Positions 1,656 through 23,670 of a stretch of DNA of 48,983 bases are shown in pieces. The translations under genes were made by a program, and so were the position numbers. Source of the DNA: a virus. The notes beneath the pieces were generated by a model. It worked only from the letters and a program-made list of their open reading frames with translations. It was not told the DNA's origin and made no database searches. The DNA lies in the UHGV virus genome UHGV-0385359. One strand, 5' to 3'. Position 1 is the first letter of the stretch. Each line of letters starts with the position of its first letter.

Positions 1656-2183
1656 TTAAATATCGTTGCTGGTGGTTCTATGTAAATTATGCTGTGGAGC
1701 TGATGCCAACAGACGCTTAGCATCAATACTGCCCTGTGCCTCAAGTTCGCCGTCCGCTTCAAGTCCATTTTCCAGGTAATCAATAACGTCGCTAACCCAC
1801 TTCCTCCAAGCGTCAGGAATATTATTCGGAATATTTTGTTGCTGGTTTTGTGGTTGCAGTGCAGCTGCTAACATTGCTCGCCAGATAGCATCGTGGTGAA
1901 CATAGAACATCGAGTCATCCTCCTTATCGAAAGACACATCATCGCTATCCATTGCAGCAGCAATCATTTCAGGTGTCGGCTCAACCGGCACAGCCGCCCA
2001 TCCAGCTGGAAACTTATAAGGCTGGCTGACAGGTTCATCGTTCTGAGCATCACGCAGAGCGTAAAAGACTTTATTACGCAATTCGTTGAACTCGTCAGAG
2101 CGAATATCTTCAGCCCGGTACGGCGGTGCCATTAAGCTAAAAATTATCGACAACTCGCGCTCAGATAACTGGATAGTTTTCAC
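1656..2183 (-). CDS. hypothetical prophage early protein
   Basis: 175 aa ORF in the leftward early operon; 4-nt overlap coupling with the neighbour. Confidence 0.5.
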   Translation of the reverse strand: MKTIQLSERELSIIFSLMAPPYRAEDIRSDEFNELRNKVFYALRDAQNDEPVSQPYKFPAGWAAVPVEPTPEMIAAAMDSDDVSFDKEDDSMFYVHHDAIWRAMLAAALQPQNQQQNIPNNIPDAWRKWVSDVIDYLENGLEADGELEAQGSIDAKRLLASAPQHNLHRTTSNDI

Positions 2184-2620
2184 GATTTACCTCCGTTGAG
2201 CATGGCGGCGCGGCAGGCGTTCCATATCTCCTGTGCATCGCCATCATGGAAGAGAGCGTCAGAATGGGACGCCATCAGGTCGCGAATTTCTACCGGGCAT
2301 TCGTCCGGCACTACCGGTGCTGGCGGGGCGGTGTAGAGTGGGCCCGGCGCGACATCATGGCGACGCCAGCGGATATCACAGGTTCTTTCCTCGTTCGGTG
2401 ATGCCCATGCAACGACATCAGCCACAGGCTCCGCCTTCCGCACTTCCAACAGTTCATCAATCGCTTTCACAGCATCAGTGATGATGTAGTCCATACTTCC
2501 GCCATTTGAGTATTGAAGATTACGCTGTAACACGTCACGAACGTGGCCCAGCCGCTCGGTTGTAAGCGGGCTGTTGGCCGGATGGTTAGCGCCGAGGCCT
2601 GTTAACTGGTTATTAGTCAT
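2180..2620 (-). CDS. hypothetical prophage early protein
   Basis: 146 aa ORF, ATGA-type overlap with flanking genes. Confidence 0.5.
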   Translation of the reverse strand: MTNNQLTGLGANHPANSPLTTERLGHVRDVLQRNLQYSNGGSMDYIITDAVKAIDELLEVRKAEPVADVVAWASPNEERTCDIRWRRHDVAPGPLYTAPPAPVVPDECPVEIRDLMASHSDALFHDGDAQEIWNACRAAMLNGGKS

Positions 2621-2802
2621 TGCAGCACCACCTTTTTACCGTGTTTCACTAATTCACCAACATCAATGCCGACGTTCAGCCAAAAACTCAGGGCTAACAA
2701 CACATCGTCTTCATTCTTGCAGTGGCAGGCGTTAATAAACTCCTGAACCGTTTTTACAGCCAGTTTTGCCATTTCCTCTTCAGTCAGGCGTTCTTTGGTC
2801 AT
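2617..2802 (-). CDS. hypothetical small protein
   Basis: 61 aa, translationally coupled within the operon. Confidence 0.4.
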   Translation of the reverse strand: MTKERLTEEEMAKLAVKTVQEFINACHCKNEDDVLLALSFWLNVGIDVGELVKHGKKVVLQ

Positions 2803-3047
2803 AGCGTCATAAGCTCCATTTTCTTGATGATTTCAGCCTGTGATTCTTCCTCATCTTCAGAAGTAGTCAGCGCCACATCATCGAACGCAGAACGAACCAT
2901 ATCGACCTCTTCTTCGGTGAAAAAATCATCGCGATAGTCGGACCATAAAACGGCAGAAAGACGACCACCTAAAACCTCGGTTACCATTGATACCGCTGGC
3001 TCTTCACCATCTTTAAAATCGACGACAAAAGTTACCTTACCCATCAC
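2799..3047 (-). CDS. hypothetical acidic small protein
   Basis: 82 aa, coupled. Confidence 0.45.
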   Translation of the reverse strand: MMGKVTFVVDFKDGEEPAVSMVTEVLGGRLSAVLWSDYRDDFFTEEEVDMVRSAFDDVALTTSEDEEESQAEIIKKMELMTL

Positions 3048-3268
3048 GCCCCCTTACCGATGCCAGCGGCGGCAACTTCTTTCGCCAGCCGCTCAGCTTC
3101 ACGAAAATCCCAGTCCACGCGGTGCGCTATCTCAATTGCAGAGCGCACAGTGCGCTCAATCAGAGAGTCCAGTTGATCGATTGTCATTGCTATGTCAGGG
3201 TTGTGAGCCAGTAACTCAGCGCGCCGAATCTGCCAGTTGTTGCAGGTTTCCAGTAATGAATTAGCCAT
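3044..3268 (-). CDS. hypothetical small protein
   Basis: 74 aa, coupled. Confidence 0.45.
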   Translation of the reverse strand: MANSLLETCNNWQIRRAELLAHNPDIAMTIDQLDSLIERTVRSAIEIAHRVDWDFREAERLAKEVAAAGIGKGA

Positions 3269-4034
3269 TGTCTTTACCCCGCGAGCTATATGCCGTCAGG
3301 CATTGTTCGAATCCCGCCTGGTCATCTGTTTGTCCAAGACTAAAGCCATGCTGAAGGCCGTGACGAAACGCGCTATCCTGCAATTTGTCAGCGGTTTGGA
3401 GTTTCGCCTCCAGTTCTGCTATGCGCTTCTTCATGTCGTCGATAGCCTCCAGAATCGACTCGTTATCGCCAGCACATCCCAGCTCCTCGGCATATTCTCG
3501 CTGCACCTGATCGGCGCTTAACAGCAAAAATTCACGGTGGTCTAAGCTGCGCTGTTGTTCCGCAATCCGCTCCTCATACCGAGCACCAATGGAAACAGCT
3601 TTTTCAAATGCCTTGAACCATTTGGCTGAATCCTGCTTTGCGGCTTCCAGCTTTGACTCCAGATGATCGATATAGAGCTTCAGAACGTCGGCGAGGTGCT
3701 TACCCCACGGTTTAATGACGTCAAATCGCTTATCACCCTGCACCCATTCTGTTTTATCGTGCCACTCATTGAATGCGGTACGGAAAGACTGGAGCGCTTC
3801 CAGCTCATCCAGCAGCGCCAGAACGGTGTCCGGGCCGAATGCCGCGATAAAGGTCGCAATTTTTCGCTCGGATATTTCATTAGAAACTGGCTGGTAAGAA
3901 CGGTAGGTTTCTCCCTTCTCAAGGCTCCCTTTGACGATAACCTGATATCCATCATCGCCATTATCGAGAGTCTCCCACTCTTCGCGTTCAACACTTTCTG
4001 CGATATCACGCAGCGCCTGTTTGTCGATTGTCAT
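3261..4034 (-). CDS. Ea22-like coiled-coil protein (start trimmed to the ATGA-coupled Met)
   Basis: Acidic, coiled-coil-rich protein typical of the ea22 family of the lambdoid b-region. ATG at 4034 overlaps the stop of the upstream gene (ATGA). Confidence 0.5.
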   Translation of the reverse strand: MTIDKQALRDIAESVEREEWETLDNGDDGYQVIVKGSLEKGETYRSYQPVSNEISERKIATFIAAFGPDTVLALLDELEALQSFRTAFNEWHDKTEWVQGDKRFDVIKPWGKHLADVLKLYIDHLESKLEAAKQDSAKWFKAFEKAVSIGARYEERIAEQQRSLDHREFLLLSADQVQREYAEELGCAGDNESILEAIDDMKKRIAELEAKLQTADKLQDSAFRHGLQHGFSLGQTDDQAGFEQCLTAYSSRGKDNG

Positions 4035-4525
4035 GCTGTACGCTCCCGTTTTGATTTGCGCAACGCTTCTTTGTAGCTGGCCTTGGCTGCTTTCTTCGTC
4101 GGGCACCACTCACCACGAACATCACAGTACGAATCCCAATATGCCCGTGAACGACGAACCATGCGGTACTCCCACTTGTAACGCCCAATCTCACGCTCTT
4201 CATAGACCGGCAACTCAATACCAAGCCATTCACCGAATGATTCACACACTTCAGAGTGAAGATATTCCTCGTAGCGAGTGCGTTTCTTCGGCTCAGGCAG
4301 CGCAGCAATCGCTAACTCTTCGCCTTTATCGGTGACGTGATAGAGCGTTCCGCCACCCGCAAAATCAGGCGCAGGCCGGGAAGTAGCACAACCATCAGCA
4401 ACAAGCGCTTGCCACTTCGAGTTGTCTGTATGACCGTCGCCAGCGAGGAAATAATTGCGGTACGGCGTCCTGTTGCGCTCGTTGATACCCAGCGCGTGCT
4501 GCATGAGTTCGATACCAGTGCTCAT
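4031..4525 (-). CDS. hypothetical protein
   Basis: 164 aa ORF; operon context. Confidence 0.5.
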   Translation of the reverse strand: MSTGIELMQHALGINERNRTPYRNYFLAGDGHTDNSKWQALVADGCATSRPAPDFAGGGTLYHVTDKGEELAIAALPEPKKRTRYEEYLHSEVCESFGEWLGIELPVYEEREIGRYKWEYRMVRRSRAYWDSYCDVRGEWCPTKKAAKASYKEALRKSKRERTA

Positions 4526-6512: not shown

Positions 6513-6884
6513 TCACTGAGCCGCTTTAAGCTTTCCGTCCACCGCGCCGGTGATCCCGAACAGTTGCCCCTGATCCTCCTGGAGGATGGTTAGCTTCCCG
6601 CCTTTGTTAACCCACATAGGGGTTTCGGTTGTGTCCTCTTCGGAGGCTTTACCGCGCGGGGTTGGGGTGCTGTAGTTCAGCTTGTGCTTGATCTTGACGC
6701 GCTTCTCTTCAACGGAATTACCCATACGCTCAAAATCAAAGGTGAGGACTACTTTGCCTTTGTTGCCGTTGTTCAGAACGCCAAGCGCGGTGGTGTTAAG
6801 TGCTGCCGCGATTTTGTTCATGAACACACCGGCATCCAGCTCGCCCAAAAAGTCGGGCACTACGGTCATGCGGTCATTACTCAT
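6513..6884 (-). CDS. hypothetical protein (yfdP position); start trimmed to an RBS-supported Met
   Basis: GAGGG-N7-ATG at 6884. First gene of the leftward early operon, downstream of the PL-like region. Confidence 0.45.
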   Translation of the reverse strand: MSNDRMTVVPDFLGELDAGVFMNKIAAALNTTALGVLNNGNKGKVVLTFDFERMGNSVEEKRVKIKHKLNYSTPTPRGKASEEDTTETPMWVNKGGKLTILQEDQGQLFGITGAVDGKLKAAQ

Positions 6885-7170
6885 GGTTTTACCCTCGTTA
6901 TGGCGGCTGCCACCGCCGAACTTTCTCCATACACAACAGAGAAGGGCACCTGCATTTGTCGGCGACTGCAATCGCTATCCTCTTGCCCGGGTGGATTGGG
7001 TTATGAGCCCGTCGCCCGGTGATGCCCTTGTCTGTTGTGTAAAAAGGGCGGTACCGAGGTAGAACATTATCTTCGTCCCCCTTGCATAAGGTTGAAGACC
7101 CTGGTACCGCCAAGACTACACACAGCAATACTGGAACTACGGTTATCACGGTCCTGAGCGTGATTTTTTC

Positions 7171-13776: not shown

Positions 13777-14660
13777 CGACAAATAAATATTGCCAGGTGC
13801 TGGCAGAACTGCGCAACCGCAGAGCGCATTATCTGAAAGATGTTGGCGATCAGTGGCGGACACCGGATCTGCTTTTTTGGGGCATTAATGCGATGTTCGG
13901 CCCCCTGACACTGGATCTCTTTGCTGACGACGATAACGCTAAGTGCCCTGTGTGGTACACCGCCGATGATAACGCGCTGGTGCAGGATTGGGCGGAAATG
14001 CTTGCCTCCATCGGTGGCGCCGCGTTCGGCAATCCGCCCTATAGCCGATCGCAATACGATGGTAAGCAGGCGATCACCGGCATGAGTCATATCATGAGCT
14101 ATGCCTCTGCCATGCGTGAAAAGGGCGGTCGCTATGTGTTCCTAATCAAAGCGGCACCGAGTGAAACATGGTGGCCTGAAGACGCTGATCATATTGTTTT
14201 CATCCGTGGCCGCATTGGCTTCGACCTTCCTGCATGGTTTATCCCGGCAGACGAGAAACAGCAGCCTACCAGCGCATTTTTCGCTGGCGCCATAGTGGTA
14301 TTCGATAAGACATGGCGTGGCGAGCGTTTCAGCTACATTCATCGCAGTGATCTGGAGGCTAAGGGGCGGGCATTTATGTCGCTGGCCCAATTTGCCGCGG
14401 CAAAAGTGGCGCCGCCAGCCCCGGTGGAAGACGTTATGCCTGCTGGCTTGGGACAGCCAGAAGTGGAGTCGCGTATCTGGCCGCTGGAGGTTGGCCTGGT
14501 ATTCAATCAGGTTGAGGGTGCGGATTCTCTGGAGTTGGCCCAGCAGAACAAGCTGAAGGCGAACATCAATCAGCTCTGGCTTGAGCGTATGCCCACCAGC
14601 GAAATAATCACCGTGGCTGGTGGTCTGGTCAACAGCATGCAGGGAGCCGTCAATGCGTGA
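13773..14660 (+). CDS. phage N6-adenine DNA methyltransferase (Dam-like)
   Basis: GNPPYS (DPPY-type) catalytic motif. ATGA overlap with the replication gene. Confidence 0.8.
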   Translation: MTTNKYCQVLAELRNRRAHYLKDVGDQWRTPDLLFWGINAMFGPLTLDLFADDDNAKCPVWYTADDNALVQDWAEMLASIGGAAFGNPPYSRSQYDGKQAITGMSHIMSYASAMREKGGRYVFLIKAAPSETWWPEDADHIVFIRGRIGFDLPAWFIPADEKQQPTSAFFAGAIVVFDKTWRGERFSYIHRSDLEAKGRAFMSLAQFAAAKVAPPAPVEDVMPAGLGQPEVESRIWPLEVGLVFNQVEGADSLELAQQNKLKANINQLWLERMPTSEIITVAGGLVNSMQGAVNA

Positions 14661-16512
14661 AATTATCGTTGATAACTTTGCTGGTGGCGGCGGCGCGAGT
14701 ACCGGGATCGAGCTGGCGATCGGGCGCAGCGTGGATATTGCCATCAACCACGACGAAAACGCGATCGCTATGCATAAGACTAACCACCCGGACACCCTGC
14801 ATTATTGCGAGTCCGTTTTTGACATTGATCCGCTGGCGGCCACAGGCGGTAATCCGGTCGGCCTCGCATGGTTTAGTCCTGATTGCCGCCACTTCTCAAA
14901 GGCGAAGGGTGCTAAGCCGGTAAAAAAAGAAATTCGCGGTCTGGCGTGGGTAGTGGTGCGCTGGGCGCTGGCGAAACGCCCGCGTGTCATGATGCTGGAG
15001 AACGTGGAGGAGTTCAAAACGTGGGGGCCGCTGCTGGCAGACGAAATGCGCCCGGATCCATCCCGCACGGGCGAAACCTTCGCGGCGTTTGTCGGCATGC
15101 TGTCTGATGGCATCCCAGCGGATCATCCCGCCCTGGCGGAGGTGTGCGAGTTTCTGTCCATACCGGAAGGTAGTGAGCAGGCGCAGCGCCTTATTAACGG
15201 GCTGGGCTACGGCATCGATTACCGCGAGCTGCGAGCCTGCGACTTCGGCGCGCCGACGATCCGCAAGCGATTCTTTATGATTATGCGTTGTGACGGGAAA
15301 CCGATTGCTTGGCCTGAGCCGACACATGGCGATCCGAAATCACCGGCAGTCCAGGCGGGTAAGCTGGCACCGTGGCGCACCGCTGCGGAATGCATAGACT
15401 GGTCTATCCCTGCACCATCGATATTCGATCGCAAAAAGCCACTGGCAGAAAATACCCTCAAGCGCATTGCGCGCGGCATTCAGCGATTTGTTATCGACAG
15501 TGCGTCGCCGTTCATCGTGAAGTGCAACCACATCAGCACCAAAACGCAATACGACTGTTTCCGGGGGCAGGCGTTGGGCGAACCGTTACAGACGATCACG
15601 AAAACTCATGGTTACGCCATCGCAGTACCACATCTGACTCCGTTCCTGGCTGGCAGCGGCGGCAGTGAGTACCAGGCTAAGCCGCGCCCGCTGGATAAAC
15701 CTGCTCACACCATACTGAAACAATCCCGGGCATGTGTTGTTGCGCCGGTTATCGCCCGACAGTTTGGGGCCAGCGTCGGCCACCGGGCAGACGAGCCAAG
15801 CGCGACAATTACCGCAGGCGGTGGCGGCAAGTCTCAGTTAGTTGTCCCAACACTCATTCAAACTGGATACGGTGAAAGACCCGGTCAACATCCGCGAGTA
15901 CCCGGGCTTGATAAACCACTTGGCACTGTCGTTGCTGGCGGCTGTAAGCATGCTGTTGTGGGGGCCTTTCTCGCAAAGCACTACGGCGGCAACTATACGG
16001 GGCCGGGCGTCGGGCTGAATGAACCCACTCATTCAGTTACGACAGTTGATCACCACGCTGTTGTAACATCCCATCTGATTCATTTGCGAGGGTTCTGCAA
16101 AGACGGTCAGAAGATGGATCAACCGGTGCCAACGATTACCGCCGGAGGACAGCATGTTGGGGAGGTGAAAACCACTCTGGCAGTTGAGCACTACGACGAA
16201 CAGCGCGCGCAGCAGACGCTGGCATTCCTGCGTGAATATTGCGGCGAAGACTGCACCGGGCTGGTGGATATCGACGGGATCACATACCGGATTGTTGACA
16301 TCGGAATGCGCATGCTGCAACCGCATGAGCTTTACCGCGCGCAGGGCTTCCCGGACTGGTACATCATCGATCGGGATTATCGCGGCGTGAAGTATGCAAA
16401 GGATAAGCAGGTTGCACGCTGCGGTAATGCTGTGCCGCCACCGTTCGCCGAGGCTTTAGTGCGCGCGAATCTGCCGGAAATGTGTGCAGAGCAGCAGAGG
16501 GAGGTTGCGTGA
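14653..16512 (+). CDS. DNA cytosine-C5 methyltransferase (large, about 619 aa)
   Basis: Motif I DNFAGGGGAS, ENV motif (MMLENVEEF), Cys-containing SPDCRHFS. ATG overlaps the dam stop (ATGCGTGA). GGAG RBS. Confidence 0.65.
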   Translation: MREIIVDNFAGGGGASTGIELAIGRSVDIAINHDENAIAMHKTNHPDTLHYCESVFDIDPLAATGGNPVGLAWFSPDCRHFSKAKGAKPVKKEIRGLAWVVVRWALAKRPRVMMLENVEEFKTWGPLLADEMRPDPSRTGETFAAFVGMLSDGIPADHPALAEVCEFLSIPEGSEQAQRLINGLGYGIDYRELRACDFGAPTIRKRFFMIMRCDGKPIAWPEPTHGDPKSPAVQAGKLAPWRTAAECIDWSIPAPSIFDRKKPLAENTLKRIARGIQRFVIDSASPFIVKCNHISTKTQYDCFRGQALGEPLQTITKTHGYAIAVPHLTPFLAGSGGSEYQAKPRPLDKPAHTILKQSRACVVAPVIARQFGASVGHRADEPSATITAGGGGKSQLVVPTLIQTGYGERPGQHPRVPGLDKPLGTVVAGGCKHAVVGAFLAKHYGGNYTGPGVGLNEPTHSVTTVDHHAVVTSHLIHLRGFCKDGQKMDQPVPTITAGGQHVGEVKTTLAVEHYDEQRAQQTLAFLREYCGEDCTGLVDIDGITYRIVDIGMRMLQPHELYRAQGFPDWYIIDRDYRGVKYAKDKQVARCGNAVPPPFAEALVRANLPEMCAEQQREVA

Positions 16513-17549: not shown

Positions 17550-17567
17550 GTGGAGTGGAGAAGAATA

Positions 17568-17915
17568 ATGCGTGATATGTATGAAGTGATGGACCGTTGG
17601 GGCGCATGGGCTGCGGCGGACAGTAGTGGGGTAGATTGGCAACCGATAGCTGCAGGGTTTAAAGGACTTCTGCCTCATGGAAAAAAAACACGCCTGCAAT
17701 GTGATGATGATGAAGGGATTATGATCGATGGCTGCGTTGCTCGATTGAAGAAGTATAAGCCGGAGGAGTATGAACTGATTATCGCTCATTTCGTTATCGG
17801 TATTTCACTGCGTGCTATTGCTAAGAAGCGCAAATGCTCAGATGGGACAATAAGGAAAGAATTACAGACAGCTCTTGGGTTTATTGATGGATGTATGTGT
17901 TTGATTTTAACTTAG
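17568..17915 (+). CDS. quuD: late-gene antiterminator Q (QuuD / phage-82-type)
   Basis: MRDMYEVMDRWGAWAAAD...IAAGFKGLL...CDDDEGIMIDGCVARLKK closely resembles DLP12 QuuD as recalled. GGAGAAG RBS. Confidence 0.8.
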   Translation: MRDMYEVMDRWGAWAAADSSGVDWQPIAAGFKGLLPHGKKTRLQCDDDEGIMIDGCVARLKKYKPEEYELIIAHFVIGISLRAIAKKRKCSDGTIRKELQTALGFIDGCMCLILT

Positions 17916-17927
17916 GTTAGACGGTTA

Positions 17928-18314
17928 CTACTCTTTTGCCTGAGCTTTGGATTCGATCTCCGTTAGGGCATCAATGCGAATGTTGATGTTTTTTAAAAGT
18001 TTATTGTCTAAATCGACAAGGCATTGGTTATAGTGCGCAATTTGGTCAGGTGTTAGGTTAGGGTTGGCCAGACAGTTCGTAATGAATTTTCTGGCCGTTT
18101 TTATTTCCCTTTTCATTCTAACGTCATTAAGCGTAGGCAAACCTACGTAAGCGATGAGAAGAATTACAACGTGAGATAAGCCAACTGCAGCTCCAGGCGC
18201 TAACGATTTGAAGAAAGCCAGCTGAGGCAACCAGTCAAAAAGGAAGTTCAACCCCGCAGTGATAAGAGTGGTAAACCACGCCTGCATAGCCAGGTAAGAT
18301 TTAGCGTTAGCCAT
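17928..18314 (-). CDS. membrane protein (2 TM + C-terminal coiled coil), gene 3 of a minus-strand moron module
   Basis: 128 aa. TGAATG coupling to the upstream gene. AGGAAGG RBS. Confidence 0.5.
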   Translation of the reverse strand: MANAKSYLAMQAWFTTLITAGLNFLFDWLPQLAFFKSLAPGAAVGLSHVVILLIAYVGLPTLNDVRMKREIKTARKFITNCLANPNLTPDQIAHYNQCLVDLDNKLLKNINIRIDALTEIESKAQAKE

Positions 18315-18560
18315 TCACCTTCCTGCACTCGCTTCGTTACGTGTTTTGAGTTCGCGCAGCAGTAACGCCAACTGTTCTGCGTCATTTTCGTTTCTAACGC
18401 TTACTTTCCTTTTGGAGGTTCTGCCTTCAGGATCTGTATAAGTTAGCTCAATGTATGCATTCGGCTTTACCCAAACCAAAAACCTAAGCACAGCATATCT
18501 GACCGTCATCGCGACGGCCATGAATACAGTGATGTAAAGCATAATGCTTAGGATGGACAT
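18315..18560 (-). CDS. small membrane protein (1 TM), gene 2 of the module
   Basis: 81 aa. N-terminal hydrophobic helix then a charged tail. 3-nt gap to the upstream gene. Confidence 0.45.
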   Translation of the reverse strand: MSILSIMLYITVFMAVAMTVRYAVLRFLVWVKPNAYIELTYTDPEGRTSKRKVSVRNENDAEQLALLLRELKTRNEASAGR

Positions 18561-18563
18561 GAT

Positions 18564-19442
18564 TTAAAGTAGTTTCCTGTCTGCTGCTGCTCTATGACGT
18601 ATAACTTTAGTGATACTATAACGTGGTTTAGATAGTTCGCCATTCGTTTCTTTTGTTGTTTCCGTAAGTTCTACAACAAAAAGATCGTCTTTACAGAACG
18701 CTGCCTGGTTGTGTTCAATCCGTTCGAGAAAAGCCTCATCTTTCATAGAGGCGCTGACTTCTTCGCCACCTGGCAGAATGATGTCCCAGCTTTTGCCTTG
18801 CTTGAAGCGAACATTAGCAAAATGTACGTTAGCTTCGCGTGTCGTTACGTGCGTTTTCTCAACAAAAGTAGATTTAGCAACTTTAAAGCTTGCTGCTTCA
18901 ACTTGTGTCACCCTGACTACCTTGTGATCCTGTTGTGAAACCGAGAACGTAGATGGCTTGTCAGTCTGCAGGGGTTTATAGATTAATTTATCCAGCTCCT
19001 TTCGGATGATTGGACTTGTGATTAATTTCTGAATGTCGTTGCTGCATTCAACCTTCTCACCATCCACTTCGATTTCTGCTGTGTCTTTTTGTTCATCGAC
19101 AACAATGGAGCTGATTTTACGCCCTTTGAGCCATTCGATTATACCGAGCACACCACCTGCTGCAGCTCCGGCACCCGCAACGAGACCGAGAGCATTAATC
19201 GTTTTGATGCTCCCCATTACAGCTACCAGCAAAGTGAATGAACCTTCTTTTGTCGCCTTAATGTTGACTTTCGGCGCTGCTGTTTCGCCGTTAATTATTT
19301 TTTCGGCATGTTCAATGAGGGTGCTAAGCGAGGTTAATGCTTCGCCTAATGTTTTCGCATCGATCTGATTATCTGCGTAAGCCTCGCCACCATAGGCAAT
19401 TTCGATTTCGGTTACTGGCAAGTTTTCGAGTTGCTGTGTCAT
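18564..19442 (-). CDS. uncharacterised 292-aa protein with central Gly/Ala-rich hydrophobic segment, gene 1 of the module
   Basis: ATG at 19442 with AGGA-N9 RBS. Segment GLVAGAGAAAGGVLGIIEWL. No recognisable family. Confidence 0.5.
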   Translation of the reverse strand: MTQQLENLPVTEIEIAYGGEAYADNQIDAKTLGEALTSLSTLIEHAEKIINGETAAPKVNIKATKEGSFTLLVAVMGSIKTINALGLVAGAGAAAGGVLGIIEWLKGRKISSIVVDEQKDTAEIEVDGEKVECSNDIQKLITSPIIRKELDKLIYKPLQTDKPSTFSVSQQDHKVVRVTQVEAASFKVAKSTFVEKTHVTTREANVHFANVRFKQGKSWDIILPGGEEVSASMKDEAFLERIEHNQAAFCKDDLFVVELTETTKETNGELSKPRYSITKVIRHRAAADRKLL

Positions 19443-19573
19443 CAAAAAGCATCCTTTGCGAAAGAGAAATAGCCACAGGATACAGATAATCTTAGGAAAA
19501 TCACTAACGCGTACGCAAAAACTATCGTAATCTGTTAAGAGTGCTCACTTCGACACACTGCTTAATCATCGAA

Positions 19574-19600
19574 ACCCTGCCACGGCGGGGTTTTTATTTT
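19574..19600 (+). terminator. orphan rho-independent terminator in the intergenic region
   Basis: ccctgccacggcgggg hairpin followed by TTTTTATTTTT. No plus-strand gene upstream. Confidence 0.4.
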
Positions 19601-19710
19601 TGTTAACACGTCCGTGCTTATCCAAAAGCGCTTCGTTAAAGTCTGAACAACCGTGGGTTGTTTGTTGATGGAGTGCCTTTTATATGGCTCAATCAGTGCA
19701 ATGGTTTGTA

Positions 19711-19746: not shown

Positions 19747-19826
19747 CTTCCGTATGATTGTGTTCTACAGTATCAGTTATGGGGTGCGGGAGCTTCGCCC
19801 CTGTATCTTTTACAGGGGCTTTTTAT
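19747..19826 (+). ncRNA. candidate small RNA (about 80 nt) defined by promoter + intrinsic terminator
   Basis: Starts about 7 nt after the -10. Ends at the hairpin cccctgta-tcttt-tacagggg (19798-19818) plus CTTTTTAT. Lies in the 575-bp noncoding region between the moron module and the ibpA-like gene. Confidence 0.45.
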
Positions 19827-20023
19827 ACGGCTGTGGTCACATATCTGGGGTCTGGTACGCATGGGGAGCCTGTGCTGGTTTACCTGTTGTACTCCCCGGG
19901 CCGGAGTGAAAAAAATTTTCCTGGCAGATCTTGAAAACTGTGTAAGAGGGATTATTTTAATTATCGGACAAGCAATGCTTGCCTCTATGTTGAGCTTTTG
20001 AACAGGAATTCAGGAGGTTAATT

Positions 20024-20491
20024 ATGGCACTCAGAACCTTGTCAGCACTCCCGGTATTTGCTGATTCCATTTTCTCAGACCGTTTCAACAGGATTGACAG
20101 ATTGTTCAGTCAGTTAACGGGGGATACCCCTGTAGCGGCTGCGCCTTCATACGATCTCAAGAAACAGGATTCGAATCGTTATCAACTTACGGTAAGCGTT
20201 CCCGGCTGGAAGGAGGATGAGCTTGAAATTGAAACCGTGGGTGGAAACTTGACTGTTGCTGGTAAGCGGGCCGAAGAATCTTCAGAAGAAAAGGAAAACT
20301 GGATATATCGTGGTATCCGACGCGCGGATTTCCAGTTAAGCTTTTCTTTACCTGAACACACTAAAGTGAGCGGTGCAAAACTGGAGAATGGTCTTCTGCA
20401 GGTGGATATTTACCAGGAAATTCCTGAAAGTGAGAAGCCTCAGAAAATAGCGATAGAGAGCAATCAGAAAGTGATAGAACATAAATCATAA
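20024..20491 (+). CDS. small heat-shock protein (Hsp20 / IbpA-IbpB family)
   Basis: 155 aa. The alpha-crystallin domain aligns with E. coli IbpA (YQLTVSVPGW..EL.I...G.LTV.GK....E...NWIYRGI..R.F...F.L.E...V.GA.LENGLL.VD). CAGGAGG RBS. Confidence 0.8.
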   Translation: MALRTLSALPVFADSIFSDRFNRIDRLFSQLTGDTPVAAAPSYDLKKQDSNRYQLTVSVPGWKEDELEIETVGGNLTVAGKRAEESSEEKENWIYRGIRRADFQLSFSLPEHTKVSGAKLENGLLQVDIYQEIPESEKPQKIAIESNQKVIEHKS

Positions 20492-20812: not shown

Positions 20813-21202
20813 ATGTCCGATCCATTAACCGGCGCTGGCGCAGTTCTCGGCGGTGGCCTGCTGGGCTCCGTTGCGTATGGAGTTTTTACTCACACCGACT
20901 TTGGCGTCGTTTTTGGCGCGTTTGGCGGTGCAGTATTTTACGTCGCAACAGCAACAAACCTTACGCGAGTCCGCCTGGCGGCATATTTCCTGACCTCGTT
21001 CATCGTCGGGGTGCTTGGAGCCGGATTTGTTGGCTCCTGGCTCAATGCCGCCACGCGTTATGAAAAACCGCTGGATGCGCTCGGCGCAGTAGTTCTTTCT
21101 GCACTGTGCATAAAGATTCTAACTTTCCTTAATAATCAGGATTTGAACAACCTGTTTGGTGTCTTTACGCGGTTACGCGGGGGAGGAGGAAATGGTAAGT
21201 GA
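20813..21202 (+). CDS. holin-like membrane protein (Gly-rich, 3 predicted TM)
   Basis: AGAGGGGG RBS. First gene of the lysis cassette, ahead of the GH19 endolysin and spanins. Confidence 0.5.
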   Translation: MSDPLTGAGAVLGGGLLGSVAYGVFTHTDFGVVFGAFGGAVFYVATATNLTRVRLAAYFLTSFIVGVLGAGFVGSWLNAATRYEKPLDALGAVVLSALCIKILTFLNNQDLNNLFGVFTRLRGGGGNGK

Positions 21203-21470
21203 CCCGACAGCACTACTTAACTCGATCACCTGCGCGGTGATAGTTCTTGTTCTGATGTTCTACCAGCGCCGGGGAGCACGTCACCGGCCTTTTATTTCGT
21301 TTCTGGCGTATCTGACCGTGCTGGTTTACGCCATCATTCCTTTGAAATTCATTTTCGGCCTGTATCACGATTCAAACTGGCTGGTTGTGCTGGTGAATAT
21401 TCTCATATGTGCCGCCGTGCTATGGGCGCGGGGAAACGTGGCACGTTTAATCAACATTCTTCAGAAATAA
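21192..21470 (+). CDS. holin / antiholin-like small membrane protein (3 TM)
   Basis: GGAGGAGG RBS. 11-nt overlap with the previous gene. Hydrophobic segments ITCAVIVLVLMF, FISFLAYLTVLVYAII, WLVVLVNILICAAVLW. Confidence 0.5.
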   Translation: MVSDPTALLNSITCAVIVLVLMFYQRRGARHRPFISFLAYLTVLVYAIIPLKFIFGLYHDSNWLVVLVNILICAAVLWARGNVARLINILQK

Positions 21471-22842: not shown

Positions 22843-22975
22843 TACGGCTTGTGACTGGGTCAGGCCACTGTACCTGACAGACCACGACATCGATGTACTG
22901 GATAAGCAGACCAAGAAAGACATCTTGGCGCATAACAAAGCGTGGATGTCAAACTGTGGCACTACAACTTATTGA
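22757..22975 (+). CDS. Rz1: o-spanin (Rz1-like proline-rich outer-membrane lipoprotein), overlapping the Rz 3' end in the +1 frame
   Basis: Lipobox LIASC, Pro-rich mature region. AGAGG RBS inside Rz. Confidence 0.65.
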   Translation: MYSRPLTICLATMLIASCATTGPAPVVVDTACDWVRPLYLTDHDIDVLDKQTKKDILAHNKAWMSNCGTTTY

Positions 22976-23670
22976 TTTTGTTTTTTGTTGTCTACCATAT
23001 CGGGCAATGTAAAGGCATATAGAAGAAATACTTCGGTGAAACCAATCATTTCTTGAGCATCTTCTTTTGAAAATTCTTCATCAGAATGAACTGCTCCATT
23101 GGAATCAATTCGAACTATATGTGCCCATTCCTTCATTTGATCTGTGATCAGTCCCTTACCATGCAACATAGAAATCCGTTTGACCAATTTCTCATCTTTT
23201 GAGTCATTTCCCAATAACTCCCGTGTAGCAATGTCCAAGACTTTACGGCAAAGCATAACGGATGTGTCGAAACGACAGCGCCCTAAGTTGTCCTTTGCCT
23301 CTATGAAAGCCATAGCAGCACGTGGTGGAGTGTGATCGGGAGCATTAAGAGTAGTGGGTTTCGGGATTATATCAATCAGCTGGTATTCTGTATTTCCAGG
23401 GATGATTACGTTTACATCATTATTTTGCCTGGATTTTGCACGAGGTAAATAACCACCGGGATTATTCATTTTCACAATAGCAATACCGGATTGAAAGCAG
23501 CTTCGACAACAAAACGCAACATTAACTAAAGGCCCTGCGTTGATGCGCAGTTCAGCCCATCCTTCAAGGACGGCATTTTCCCTCAGACAATGTGGGCAAG
23601 TGATATCGAAAGTGAGAATTCCCATGACTCTACTCCATACATTAAAAGAAATTGAAAATGAATTAGACAA
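22969..23670 (-). CDS. moron protein: N-terminal CxxC...CxxC zinc ribbon + C-terminal DUF4145-like (HEPN-like?) domain
   Basis: CPHCLREN...CCRSC. The C-terminus (…LCRKVLDIATRELLG…VRIDSNGAVHSDEE…) resembles DUF4145. Lies on the opposite strand between the lysis cassette and cos (the lambda bor position). Confidence 0.5.
   Translation of the reverse strand: MSNSFSISFNVWSRVMGILTFDITCPHCLRENAVLEGWAELRINAGPLVNVAFCCRSCFQSGIAIVKMNNPGGYLPRAKSRQNNDVNVIIPGNTEYQLIDIIPKPTTLNAPDHTPPRAAMAFIEAKDNLGRCRFDTSVMLCRKVLDIATRELLGNDSKDEKLVKRISMLHGKGLITDQMKEWAHIVRIDSNGAVHSDEEFSKEDAQEMIGFTEVFLLYAFTLPDMVDNKKQNQ

Follow-up and report, generated by a model that had tools for sequence, protein, structure and literature searches.

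Introduction

Among phage-encoded anti-phage systems, the gp29/gp30 pair of mycobacteriophage MichelleMyBell (DefenseFinder MMB_gp29_gp30) has a measured phenotype: a MichelleMyBell prophage cuts the plating of phage Tweety 10^4-10^5-fold, with escape mutations in Tweety gene 54 (PMC8549241), and the defence is typical of abortive infection in that adsorption and injection proceed and no phage is produced (PMC6426606). The gp29 protein, which is toxic and is accompanied by the putative membrane protein gp30 (PMC11856565), is encoded in the cluster N central region, reported as lysogen-expressed (PMC6426596), and DefenseFinder has detected gp29-gp30 only in Actinobacteria (10.1101/2023.03.30.534874). 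A further set of defence genes, the PDC set of PADLOC, consists of 145 untested candidates that were picked for their embedding in BREX, DISARM or type I restriction-modification loci (10.1101/2024.01.29.577857). Here we analyse three minus-strand genes, termed A, B and C, that lie between the antiterminator gene Q and the lysis genes of the virus genome UHGV-0385359 (48,983 nucleotides; this whole stretch of DNA is referred to as the window). Judging from sequence comparisons, these genes very probably serve anti-phage defence, and they probably form a self-contained moron of a lambdoid prophage that represents a proteobacterial, three-gene version of the MichelleMyBell gp29/gp30 system, predicted mechanism included.

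Results and discussion

Layout of the cassette

The cassette and the gene that bounds it on the left are arranged as follows; the holins of the window lie further downstream at 20813-21470 (Pfam).

Gene A, 18564-19442, minus strand: 292 aa, conserved core of the cassette, member by sequence of the gp29 / PADLOC PDC-S42 / NCBIfam LAPAL family
Gene B, 18315-18560, minus strand: 81 aa, N-terminal transmembrane (TM) helix and conserved soluble tail, orphan phrog_27630
Gene C, 17928-18314, minus strand: 128 aa, predicted membrane hairpin and basic helical tail, orphan phrog_26468
Antiterminator Q gene, 17550-17915, plus strand: Pfam PF06530 (5.5e-46), convergent with C, left boundary of the cargo slot

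The open reading frame (ORF) of gene A extends to a TTG at 19445 (18564-19445, 293 aa), and the protein is taken as 292 aa because the ATG at 19442 is the start in homologues. An initial annotation of this DNA had described three tightly coupled minus-strand ORFs between Q and the lysis genes, and all three are present where it placed them, with an A/B junction that reads TAA-atc-ATG (3-nt gap) and a B/C junction that reads TGAATG (no gap). The 10 bp that it gave between Q and C has to be corrected to 12 nt between the two stop codons. Its description of the module as low in GC holds (0.41-0.46 vs 0.55-0.60 in the early region), with the low-GC stretch running on to ~20800 and taking in an Hsp20 gene as well. 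Hydropathy and an AlphaFold model of C likewise bear out its physical portrait of the proteins, namely a central Gly/Ala-rich hydrophobic segment in A, a single TM helix in B, and two TM segments with a coiled-coil tail in C.

Protein A and the gp29 family

Based on profile comparisons, A is a full-length, distant homologue of MichelleMyBell gp29. The pointer to gp29 was a depositor's note ("MMB_gp29_gp30__gp29") on a Vibrio homologue, with which a BFVD fold match of A to a protein of Mycobacterium phage Pipsqueaks is consistent. When gp29 (KF986246, 310 aa) was compared with a profile of 145 diverse A members, hhalign returned a probability of 98.9% (E 1.1e-17, 270 columns), and the two proteins share the same domain order as well as the motifs H-x-[IL]-x-A...L, GSF, W[RK], EDExFLxRV and KVxxHR. 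Window A alone recovers gp29 by BLASTP at E 3e-8, and A and gp29 are only ~22-23% identical; tblastn from the Vibrio homologue did not reach mycobacteriophages, and profile methods were required for the link.

The same relationship emerges from curated models. A matches PADLOC PDLC05015 (PDC-S42) at 1.1e-53, with residues 13-289 aligned to profile positions 5-294 of 302, and NCBIfam NF053583 ("LAPAL motif-containing putative phage structural protein") at 224.3 bits, the curated cut-off being 60, while gp29 scores 181 bits against NF053583 and 1.6e-16 against PDC-S42. Since gp29 and A pass the same models and align with each other, we treat PDC-S42, the LAPAL family and gp29 as one family. The literal motif is variable within it, being LGEAL in window A, LAPSL in ORF19 of Lactobacillus phage A2 and LAPAL in locus L046, and A also matches phrog_3243, to which no function is assigned. 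The initial annotation had recognised no known defence family among the three proteins and had proposed a PADLOC run as a check; that run leads to PDC-S42 and, together with the homology to gp29, overturns its statement. An assignment to DUF7946 was considered and rejected, as this model matches 61 of the 145 A members over the N-terminal 40-90 residues only and stays below its cut-off in all members checked individually. S42 is not named in the supplements of the PDC paper (10.1101/2024.01.29.577857). A literature search returned nothing on PDC-S42, 'LAPAL motif', DUF7946 or the E. coli accessions, and it found no published equation of PDC-S42 or LAPAL with gp29 and no description of a three-gene form.

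Conservation of the A-B-C unit

To survey the cassette, loci were drawn from species-representative genomes, IMG/VR contigs, assemblies, phage records and plasmids, and profile hidden Markov models (HMMs) built for A, B and C were run on every ORF of the fetched loci. A is present in 72 loci, the window included, and B and C follow it directly at fixed offsets in all of them except four distant ones and L002 (Tatumella saanichensis), in which the contig stops before C. The stop codon of B lies 244-290 nt past that of A, and the stop codon of C lies 593-750 nt past it (412 nt in L022, where C is clipped by the contig end). The ordered triad is recovered down to ~27% identity in A; window A and the E. 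coli prophage copy share 94% protein identity and 87% DNA identity. The recurrence of the same ordered triad at fixed offsets across loci indicates that A, B and C are not chance ORFs, and the triad defines a large proteobacterial branch that includes Pseudomonas, Vibrio, Gilliamella and Pseudoalteromonas. The four exceptions comprise L046 and L049 (24% identity), where a solitary A adjoins a cI-like repressor, Lactobacillus phage A2, where the solitary homologue ORF19 lies between endolysin and integrase, and MichelleMyBell itself. Since A occurs without B and C in these distant loci, we take A to be the ancestral core.

The recovered size of the family depended on the search. A word-indexed search recovered just 40 A clusters, confined to Enterobacterales and neighbours, and a second homologue search with a diverse alignment returned almost exclusively the same enterobacterial clade; an exhaustive profile search gave 3,591 A-family cluster representatives at E <= 1e-3 (~3,600 clusters, defined at 50% identity). 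Among the best 150 of these 3,591 representatives, nearly all are 275-330 aa long and match nearly the whole profile.

The small membrane proteins B and C

By hydropathy and alignment across loci, B has its only TM helix at the N-terminus, with basic residues after it and then a conserved soluble tail of the pattern KPxxY[IV]xLxYxDxxG... In C, hydropathy identifies a strong TM segment at 37-63 and a weaker one at 8-30. Its AlphaFold model, with helices at 2-28, 30-57, 62-82 and 89-127 and a mean pLDDT (predicted local distance difference test score) of 76.7, appears to fit a two-helix membrane hairpin with a helical tail; this tail is strongly basic and comprises ~65 residues. According to the positive-inside rule, the tails of both proteins should face the cytoplasm, where A is. 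Neither B nor C has a significant match in Pfam, PADLOC or NCBIfam, the PHROG orphan families to which they belong carry no function, and the homologues of C are all annotated as 'hypothetical' and lack a Pfam domain. In the E. coli E66 locus (L001, NZ_CM173951) B was left uncalled by the Prokaryotic Genome Annotation Pipeline (PGAP), which calls A and C and leaves the 250-bp gap between them empty, and the B HMM matches an ORF there at 6746-6996 (6e-23).

Two small inner-membrane proteins that are obligatory partners of A in the proteobacterial branch, encoded at a moron-typical position, would also suit superinfection exclusion, in which B and C with docked A alter the inner membrane so that DNA entry is blocked and the cell survives without toxicity. 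Small membrane proteins are common among the exclusion proteins of prophages. However, the only studied relative permits adsorption and injection (PMC6426606), gp29 is described as toxic (PMC11856565), and family members work, or at least persist, without a membrane partner in phage A2 (ORF19), L046 and L049. We regard DNA-entry exclusion as the main rival of the gp29-like defence proposed here, albeit an unlikely one, and the lysis-accessory, structural and addiction readings considered below as much less likely again.

Structure and sequence features of A

Structure prediction, which the initial annotation had also suggested, was run on A and C. The AlphaFold model of A (mean pLDDT 82.7; predicted template modelling score, pTM, 0.76) begins with a beta-alpha-beta-beta unit at residues 11-77, the N-terminal domain carrying the motifs IDAxxLGxAL and EGSF, and continues with a short helix, a Gly/Ala-rich stretch (low confidence at 92-96) and a helix at 99-106. 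Two beta-barrel units follow at 113-180 and 196-285, the second with the OB order beta1-3/alpha/beta4-5. The fold matches of A in the PDB are OB folds only, and a sequence search of A against solved structures returned only noise (MS2 coat protein, domain scores of 8.5 bits). Among the 145 members, W220 and F239 are the only invariant residues, L33, G68, S69, G87, R148, P158, D236 and V281 are near-invariant, and no invariant residue set of a catalytic type was found in this alignment.

The central Gly/Ala-rich segment, uncharged in window A and spanning ~82-106 by hydropathy, ends in WLKGRK, and a basic WLKGRK-like motif follows it in the inspected sequences. The most hydrophobic 17-mer coincides with it in 92% of the 145 members; in 61% of them it is uncharged, and the hydrophobic feature is retained in gp29 and in phage A2 ORF19. 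As the segment is conserved yet only marginally TM-like, it is more readily seen as a latent or peripheral membrane element than as a constitutive anchor.

Genomic contexts and mobility

Antisense placement between Q and the holin is seen in the window and in Morganella prophages, which have two different antiterminator families next to the cassette; of 5,426 complete E. coli genomes, 65 carry the cassette in this position. In Raoultella and Mixta it belongs to the nin region and shares the strand of the early genes; in Pantoea it is found at the prophage end and between tail genes; and in Mu-like Orbaceae prophages upstream of the lysis genes, on the same strand and directly before a membrane protein and a lytic transglycosylase. 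Pseudomonas carries it directly after a cI-like repressor on the same strand, and also on ~30 megaplasmids. In Vibrio it adjoins the integrase of a 14-kb PM2-like (non-tailed) prophage, in Tatumella it stands beside Drt8 and its PD-(D/E)XK partner, and in Enterobacter it occupies a serine-recombinase/VapE-like primase island in which no phage structural or lysis genes were found within 8 kb of the cassette. The cassette is an autonomous accessory unit that moves whole between unrelated mobile elements and prophage positions, and this variety of contexts rules out a role in the virion and argues against one in lysis.

The same slot accommodates another defence system in a related phage. Klebsiella phage ST846-OXA48phi9.1 (L073, MK416021) has the same DUF968-Q backbone and encodes on the minus strand, between Q and the holin, two 'hypothetical proteins' (1022-2414) that are KwaB (PADLOC 5e-144) and KwaA (1.6e-82). 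They make up an unannotated Kiwa system whose slot and antisense orientation are those of the window cassette. This is in keeping with the initial annotation, which had proposed a moron of membrane-associated proteins in a Q-adjacent defence hotspot.

The NCBIfam name NF053583, which PGAP has spread in E. coli genomes, would make A a phage structural protein. A is nevertheless encoded outside structural operons, antisense to them and at many positions, including non-phage islands and plasmids, and in tailed as well as PM2-like non-tailed prophages; its model has no virion-protein fold match in the PDB or BFVD, and its family includes the defence protein gp29, from a region that is reportedly lysogen-expressed (PMC6426596). 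We give a structural role next to no credence. An accessory function in the prophage's own lysis or lysis timing, for instance as an antiholin-like or holin-regulating membrane set, might be suspected from the position of the cassette beside lysis genes in the window, Morganella and the Orbaceae Mu-like prophages, and from the A homologues that follow lysis genes in MichelleMyBell and phage A2. It appears very improbable given that other copies of the cassette are placed within the nin region, next to cI, at the ends of prophages, in the island lacking lysis genes and on megaplasmids, that it runs antisense to the late operon in the window, that B and C match no holin, antiholin or spanin family (Pfam, PHROG function, NCBIfam), and that Kiwa takes the same slot in another phage.

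Several neighbouring genes were observed at these loci. The Drt8 gene of T. saanichensis (PADLOC 7.9e-151) and its PD-(D/E)XK partner (3e-73), at 2124-4522 on the plus strand of L002, lie ~1.5 kb upstream of A-B(-C) and form a small defence island with them. In Enterobacter hormaechei (L050-L055) a 250-aa tRNA_anti-like OB protein (PF12869; 6747-7499, minus strand) is encoded divergently beside the cassette. The E. coli E66 locus contains a PP2C phosphatase and Ser/Thr kinase pair (1694-3188, minus strand), of which the kinase matches PADLOC PD-T4-6, mad6 and Stk2 (to 1e-38); this pair may be a second defence cargo.

The region upstream of A

Upstream of A the window contains the following features.

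19443-19504, minus strand: cargo-specific leader, with a candidate -10 TAAGAT (19494-19489) and the ribosome-binding region of A
19505-19604, plus strand: backbone block bounding the slot, TAACGCGTACGC...GTTAAGAGTG, then an intrinsic terminator (stem-loop 19571-19594)
19797-19819, plus strand: second intrinsic terminator or hairpin (terminator scan)
19966-20030, plus strand: FourU RNA thermometer (Rfam RF01795, 84.6 bits, E 2.8e-16, full-length)
20024-20491, plus strand: Hsp20 gene, IbpA/IbpB-like (Pfam HSP20 1.4e-17; phrog_432), its start overlapped by the FourU element

The leader is conserved with the E. coli and L019 copies of the cassette and not with the Kiwa-carrying Klebsiella phage. 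The adjoining block of ~100 bp is common to the window, E. coli L001 and ST846-OXA48phi9.1, whatever the cargo, and presumably corresponds, for this type of Q, to the late promoter/qut and tR' region; scans found no convincing plus-strand promoter within it. The 575-bp regulatory region that had been attributed to the cassette therefore shrinks to the ~60 bp of the leader, the remainder being backbone, terminators and the thermometer of the Hsp20 gene.

A candidate leftward promoter, TTGCGT-N18-TAAGAT, straddles the junction of cargo and backbone. Its -35 element (TTGCGT, 19518-19513, minus strand) lies mostly within the left end of the block and overlaps the GCGTACGC palindrome, and its -10 element, at the same position in each cargo, reads TAAGAT in the window, CATAAT in E. 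coli and TATAGT before Kiwa. On its own the candidate scores no better than shuffled sequence, and we infer the promoter from this positional conservation across two kinds of cargo. As C and Q are convergent and 12 nt apart with no terminator between them, lytic transcription of Q should run antisense into the cassette.

The phage small heat-shock gene is probably temperature-controlled. Its presence beside the cassette, together with the reported toxicity of gp29 (PMC11856565) and the occurrence of the cassette on plasmids and islands besides prophages, could point to a host-fitness or addiction module unrelated to phages, such as a toxin-antitoxin-like module for membrane stress that keeps the mobile element stable. 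However, the Hsp20 neighbour is not conserved, E. coli relatives having four tRNA genes at its position; the cassette stands beside Drt8 in one locus and shares its slot with Kiwa; and the phenotype measured for the relative is anti-phage (PMC8549241). We consider an addiction function improbable.

Two further genes of the window were observed outside the slot. Just beyond the lysis genes, the minus strand encodes at 22969-23670 a 233-aa DUF4145 protein (Pfam 1.4e-10; phrog_1305; weak PADLOC match to PD-T7-4, 0.003), a possible further antisense moron. A 630-aa ORF at 14620-16512 on the plus strand, upstream of the DUF968 gene, has a start (FAGGGG...) that appears to resemble a cytosine-C5 DNA methyltransferase.

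Proposed mechanism

With A placed in the gp29 family, defence of the abortive-infection or exclusion type, as had been suggested from the gene arrangement, is still the best reading of the cassette. We propose that in uninfected lysogens A, which lacks an enzyme-like motif, would rest soluble or peripheral in the cytoplasm with its conserved, marginally hydrophobic Gly/Ala-rich helix sheltered by the N-terminal domain on one side and the beta-barrel (OB-like) domains on the other, and that B and C, their tails facing the cytoplasm, would hold or gate it at the inner membrane. A cue from the infecting phage could be sensed via the beta-barrel domains of A or via B and C, and would free the helix or the A-B-C complex, whereupon the membrane would be disturbed and the cell would stop supporting phage growth. 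The cassette would be read leftward from the promoter at the backbone edge while the prophage is repressed; upon induction of the prophage, convergent transcription through Q would probably silence it.

Several points count against this proposal. The mechanism of gp29/gp30 is itself unknown (PMC11856565), so that the membrane-disruption step is one we infer. The median Kyte-Doolittle value of the central segment is borderline (1.56 across the 145 members), and in the AlphaFold model the Gly/Ala-rich segment is not a continuous TM helix. Profiles of B and C compared with gp30 gave hhalign probabilities of 0.3-0.4%, which is a weak test given that gp30 has 67 aa, mostly TM. Scans of the window gave no significant sigma-70 promoter in front of A, so that expression in the lysogen is assumed. 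Finally, PADLOC lists PDC-S42 as untested, and the proteobacterial branch is known from genes alone.

Extended to the whole gp29/LAPAL/PDC-S42 family, which spans several bacterial phyla, the proposal would be that its members are non-enzymatic abortive-infection effectors that kill by membrane insertion of a conserved, normally sequestered Gly/Ala-rich helix, with B and C acquired in Proteobacteria as a dedicated inner-membrane receptor or gate and with switch-off by the convergent Q operon; in this specific form we consider it less likely than not. If true, the family would represent a new kind of membrane-targeting immune effector that has no solved structural relative.

Significance

The relationship described here unifies three labels, namely the defence protein gp29, the PADLOC candidate PDC-S42 and an NCBI family named as structural. 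The NCBI name "putative phage structural protein" is unsupported, and the present assignment corrects an annotation that PGAP is spreading. It also extends the gp29 system, which was thought to be confined to Actinobacteria, to Proteobacteria, Firmicutes phages, plasmids and non-tailed prophages. The existence of a three-gene form with two unrecognised partners matters for cloning or detecting the system, and mechanistic studies by E. coli genetics could reasonably be directed at a large family that has neither an enzymatic domain nor a solved structural relative. The Q-proximal slot, with antisense cargo that is interchangeable (this cassette or Kiwa), offers a natural hotspot in which to look for further systems.

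Comparison with known systems

Prophage-borne systems that pair a cytoplasmic protein with a small membrane protein offer several parallels to the cassette. In lambda RexA/RexB, too, the prophage encodes a cytoplasmic protein (~280 aa) together with a small membrane protein, and the position of A-B-C in Pseudomonas, downstream of cI and on its strand, matches that of rexAB in lambda. Homology to RexAB was examined and rejected, with an hhalign probability of 0.2% for RexA, a BLASTP E of 2.1 for RexB against C, and RexA not among the listed fold matches. Sbash gp30/31, also a cytoplasmic and a small membrane protein on a prophage, is likened by layout only. Kiwa, composed of the membrane protein KwaA and the DUF4868 protein KwaB, resembles the cassette in combining a small membrane protein with a cytoplasmic protein of ~290 aa, but its gene order is reversed, and in PADLOC A has no match to KwaB and B and C have none to KwaA.

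EACC1 (PF19953), a proteolysis-gated pore-forming effector (10.1101/2025.11.14.688446), is similar to A in being non-enzymatic and in having a small-residue-rich hydrophobic element followed by beta-strands. A gives a weak Pfam match to it (residues 82-140 to EACC1 42-101, E 0.016); unlike EACC1, the cassette contains no protease gene and A is three times longer. Kinship with EACC1 was rejected at 15.6 bits against a gathering threshold of 23.6, with only 6 of the 145 members matching, and those weakly.

PDC-S42 is modelled by PADLOC as a single gene, whereas nearly all proteobacterial loci examined here contain a three-gene operon. The gp29/gp30 system shares with the cassette a large protein followed by small membrane protein(s) and a location in variable regions of temperate phages, and gp30, a 67-aa two-TM hairpin, resembles C in this respect by analogy only. 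The cassette differs in its Gram-negative host and in having two partners, B with one TM helix and a soluble tail and C with two TM segments and a helical tail, in place of the single 67-aa protein. Because A is a member by sequence and the membrane partners are different and additional, we classify the cassette as a variant of the gp29 family.

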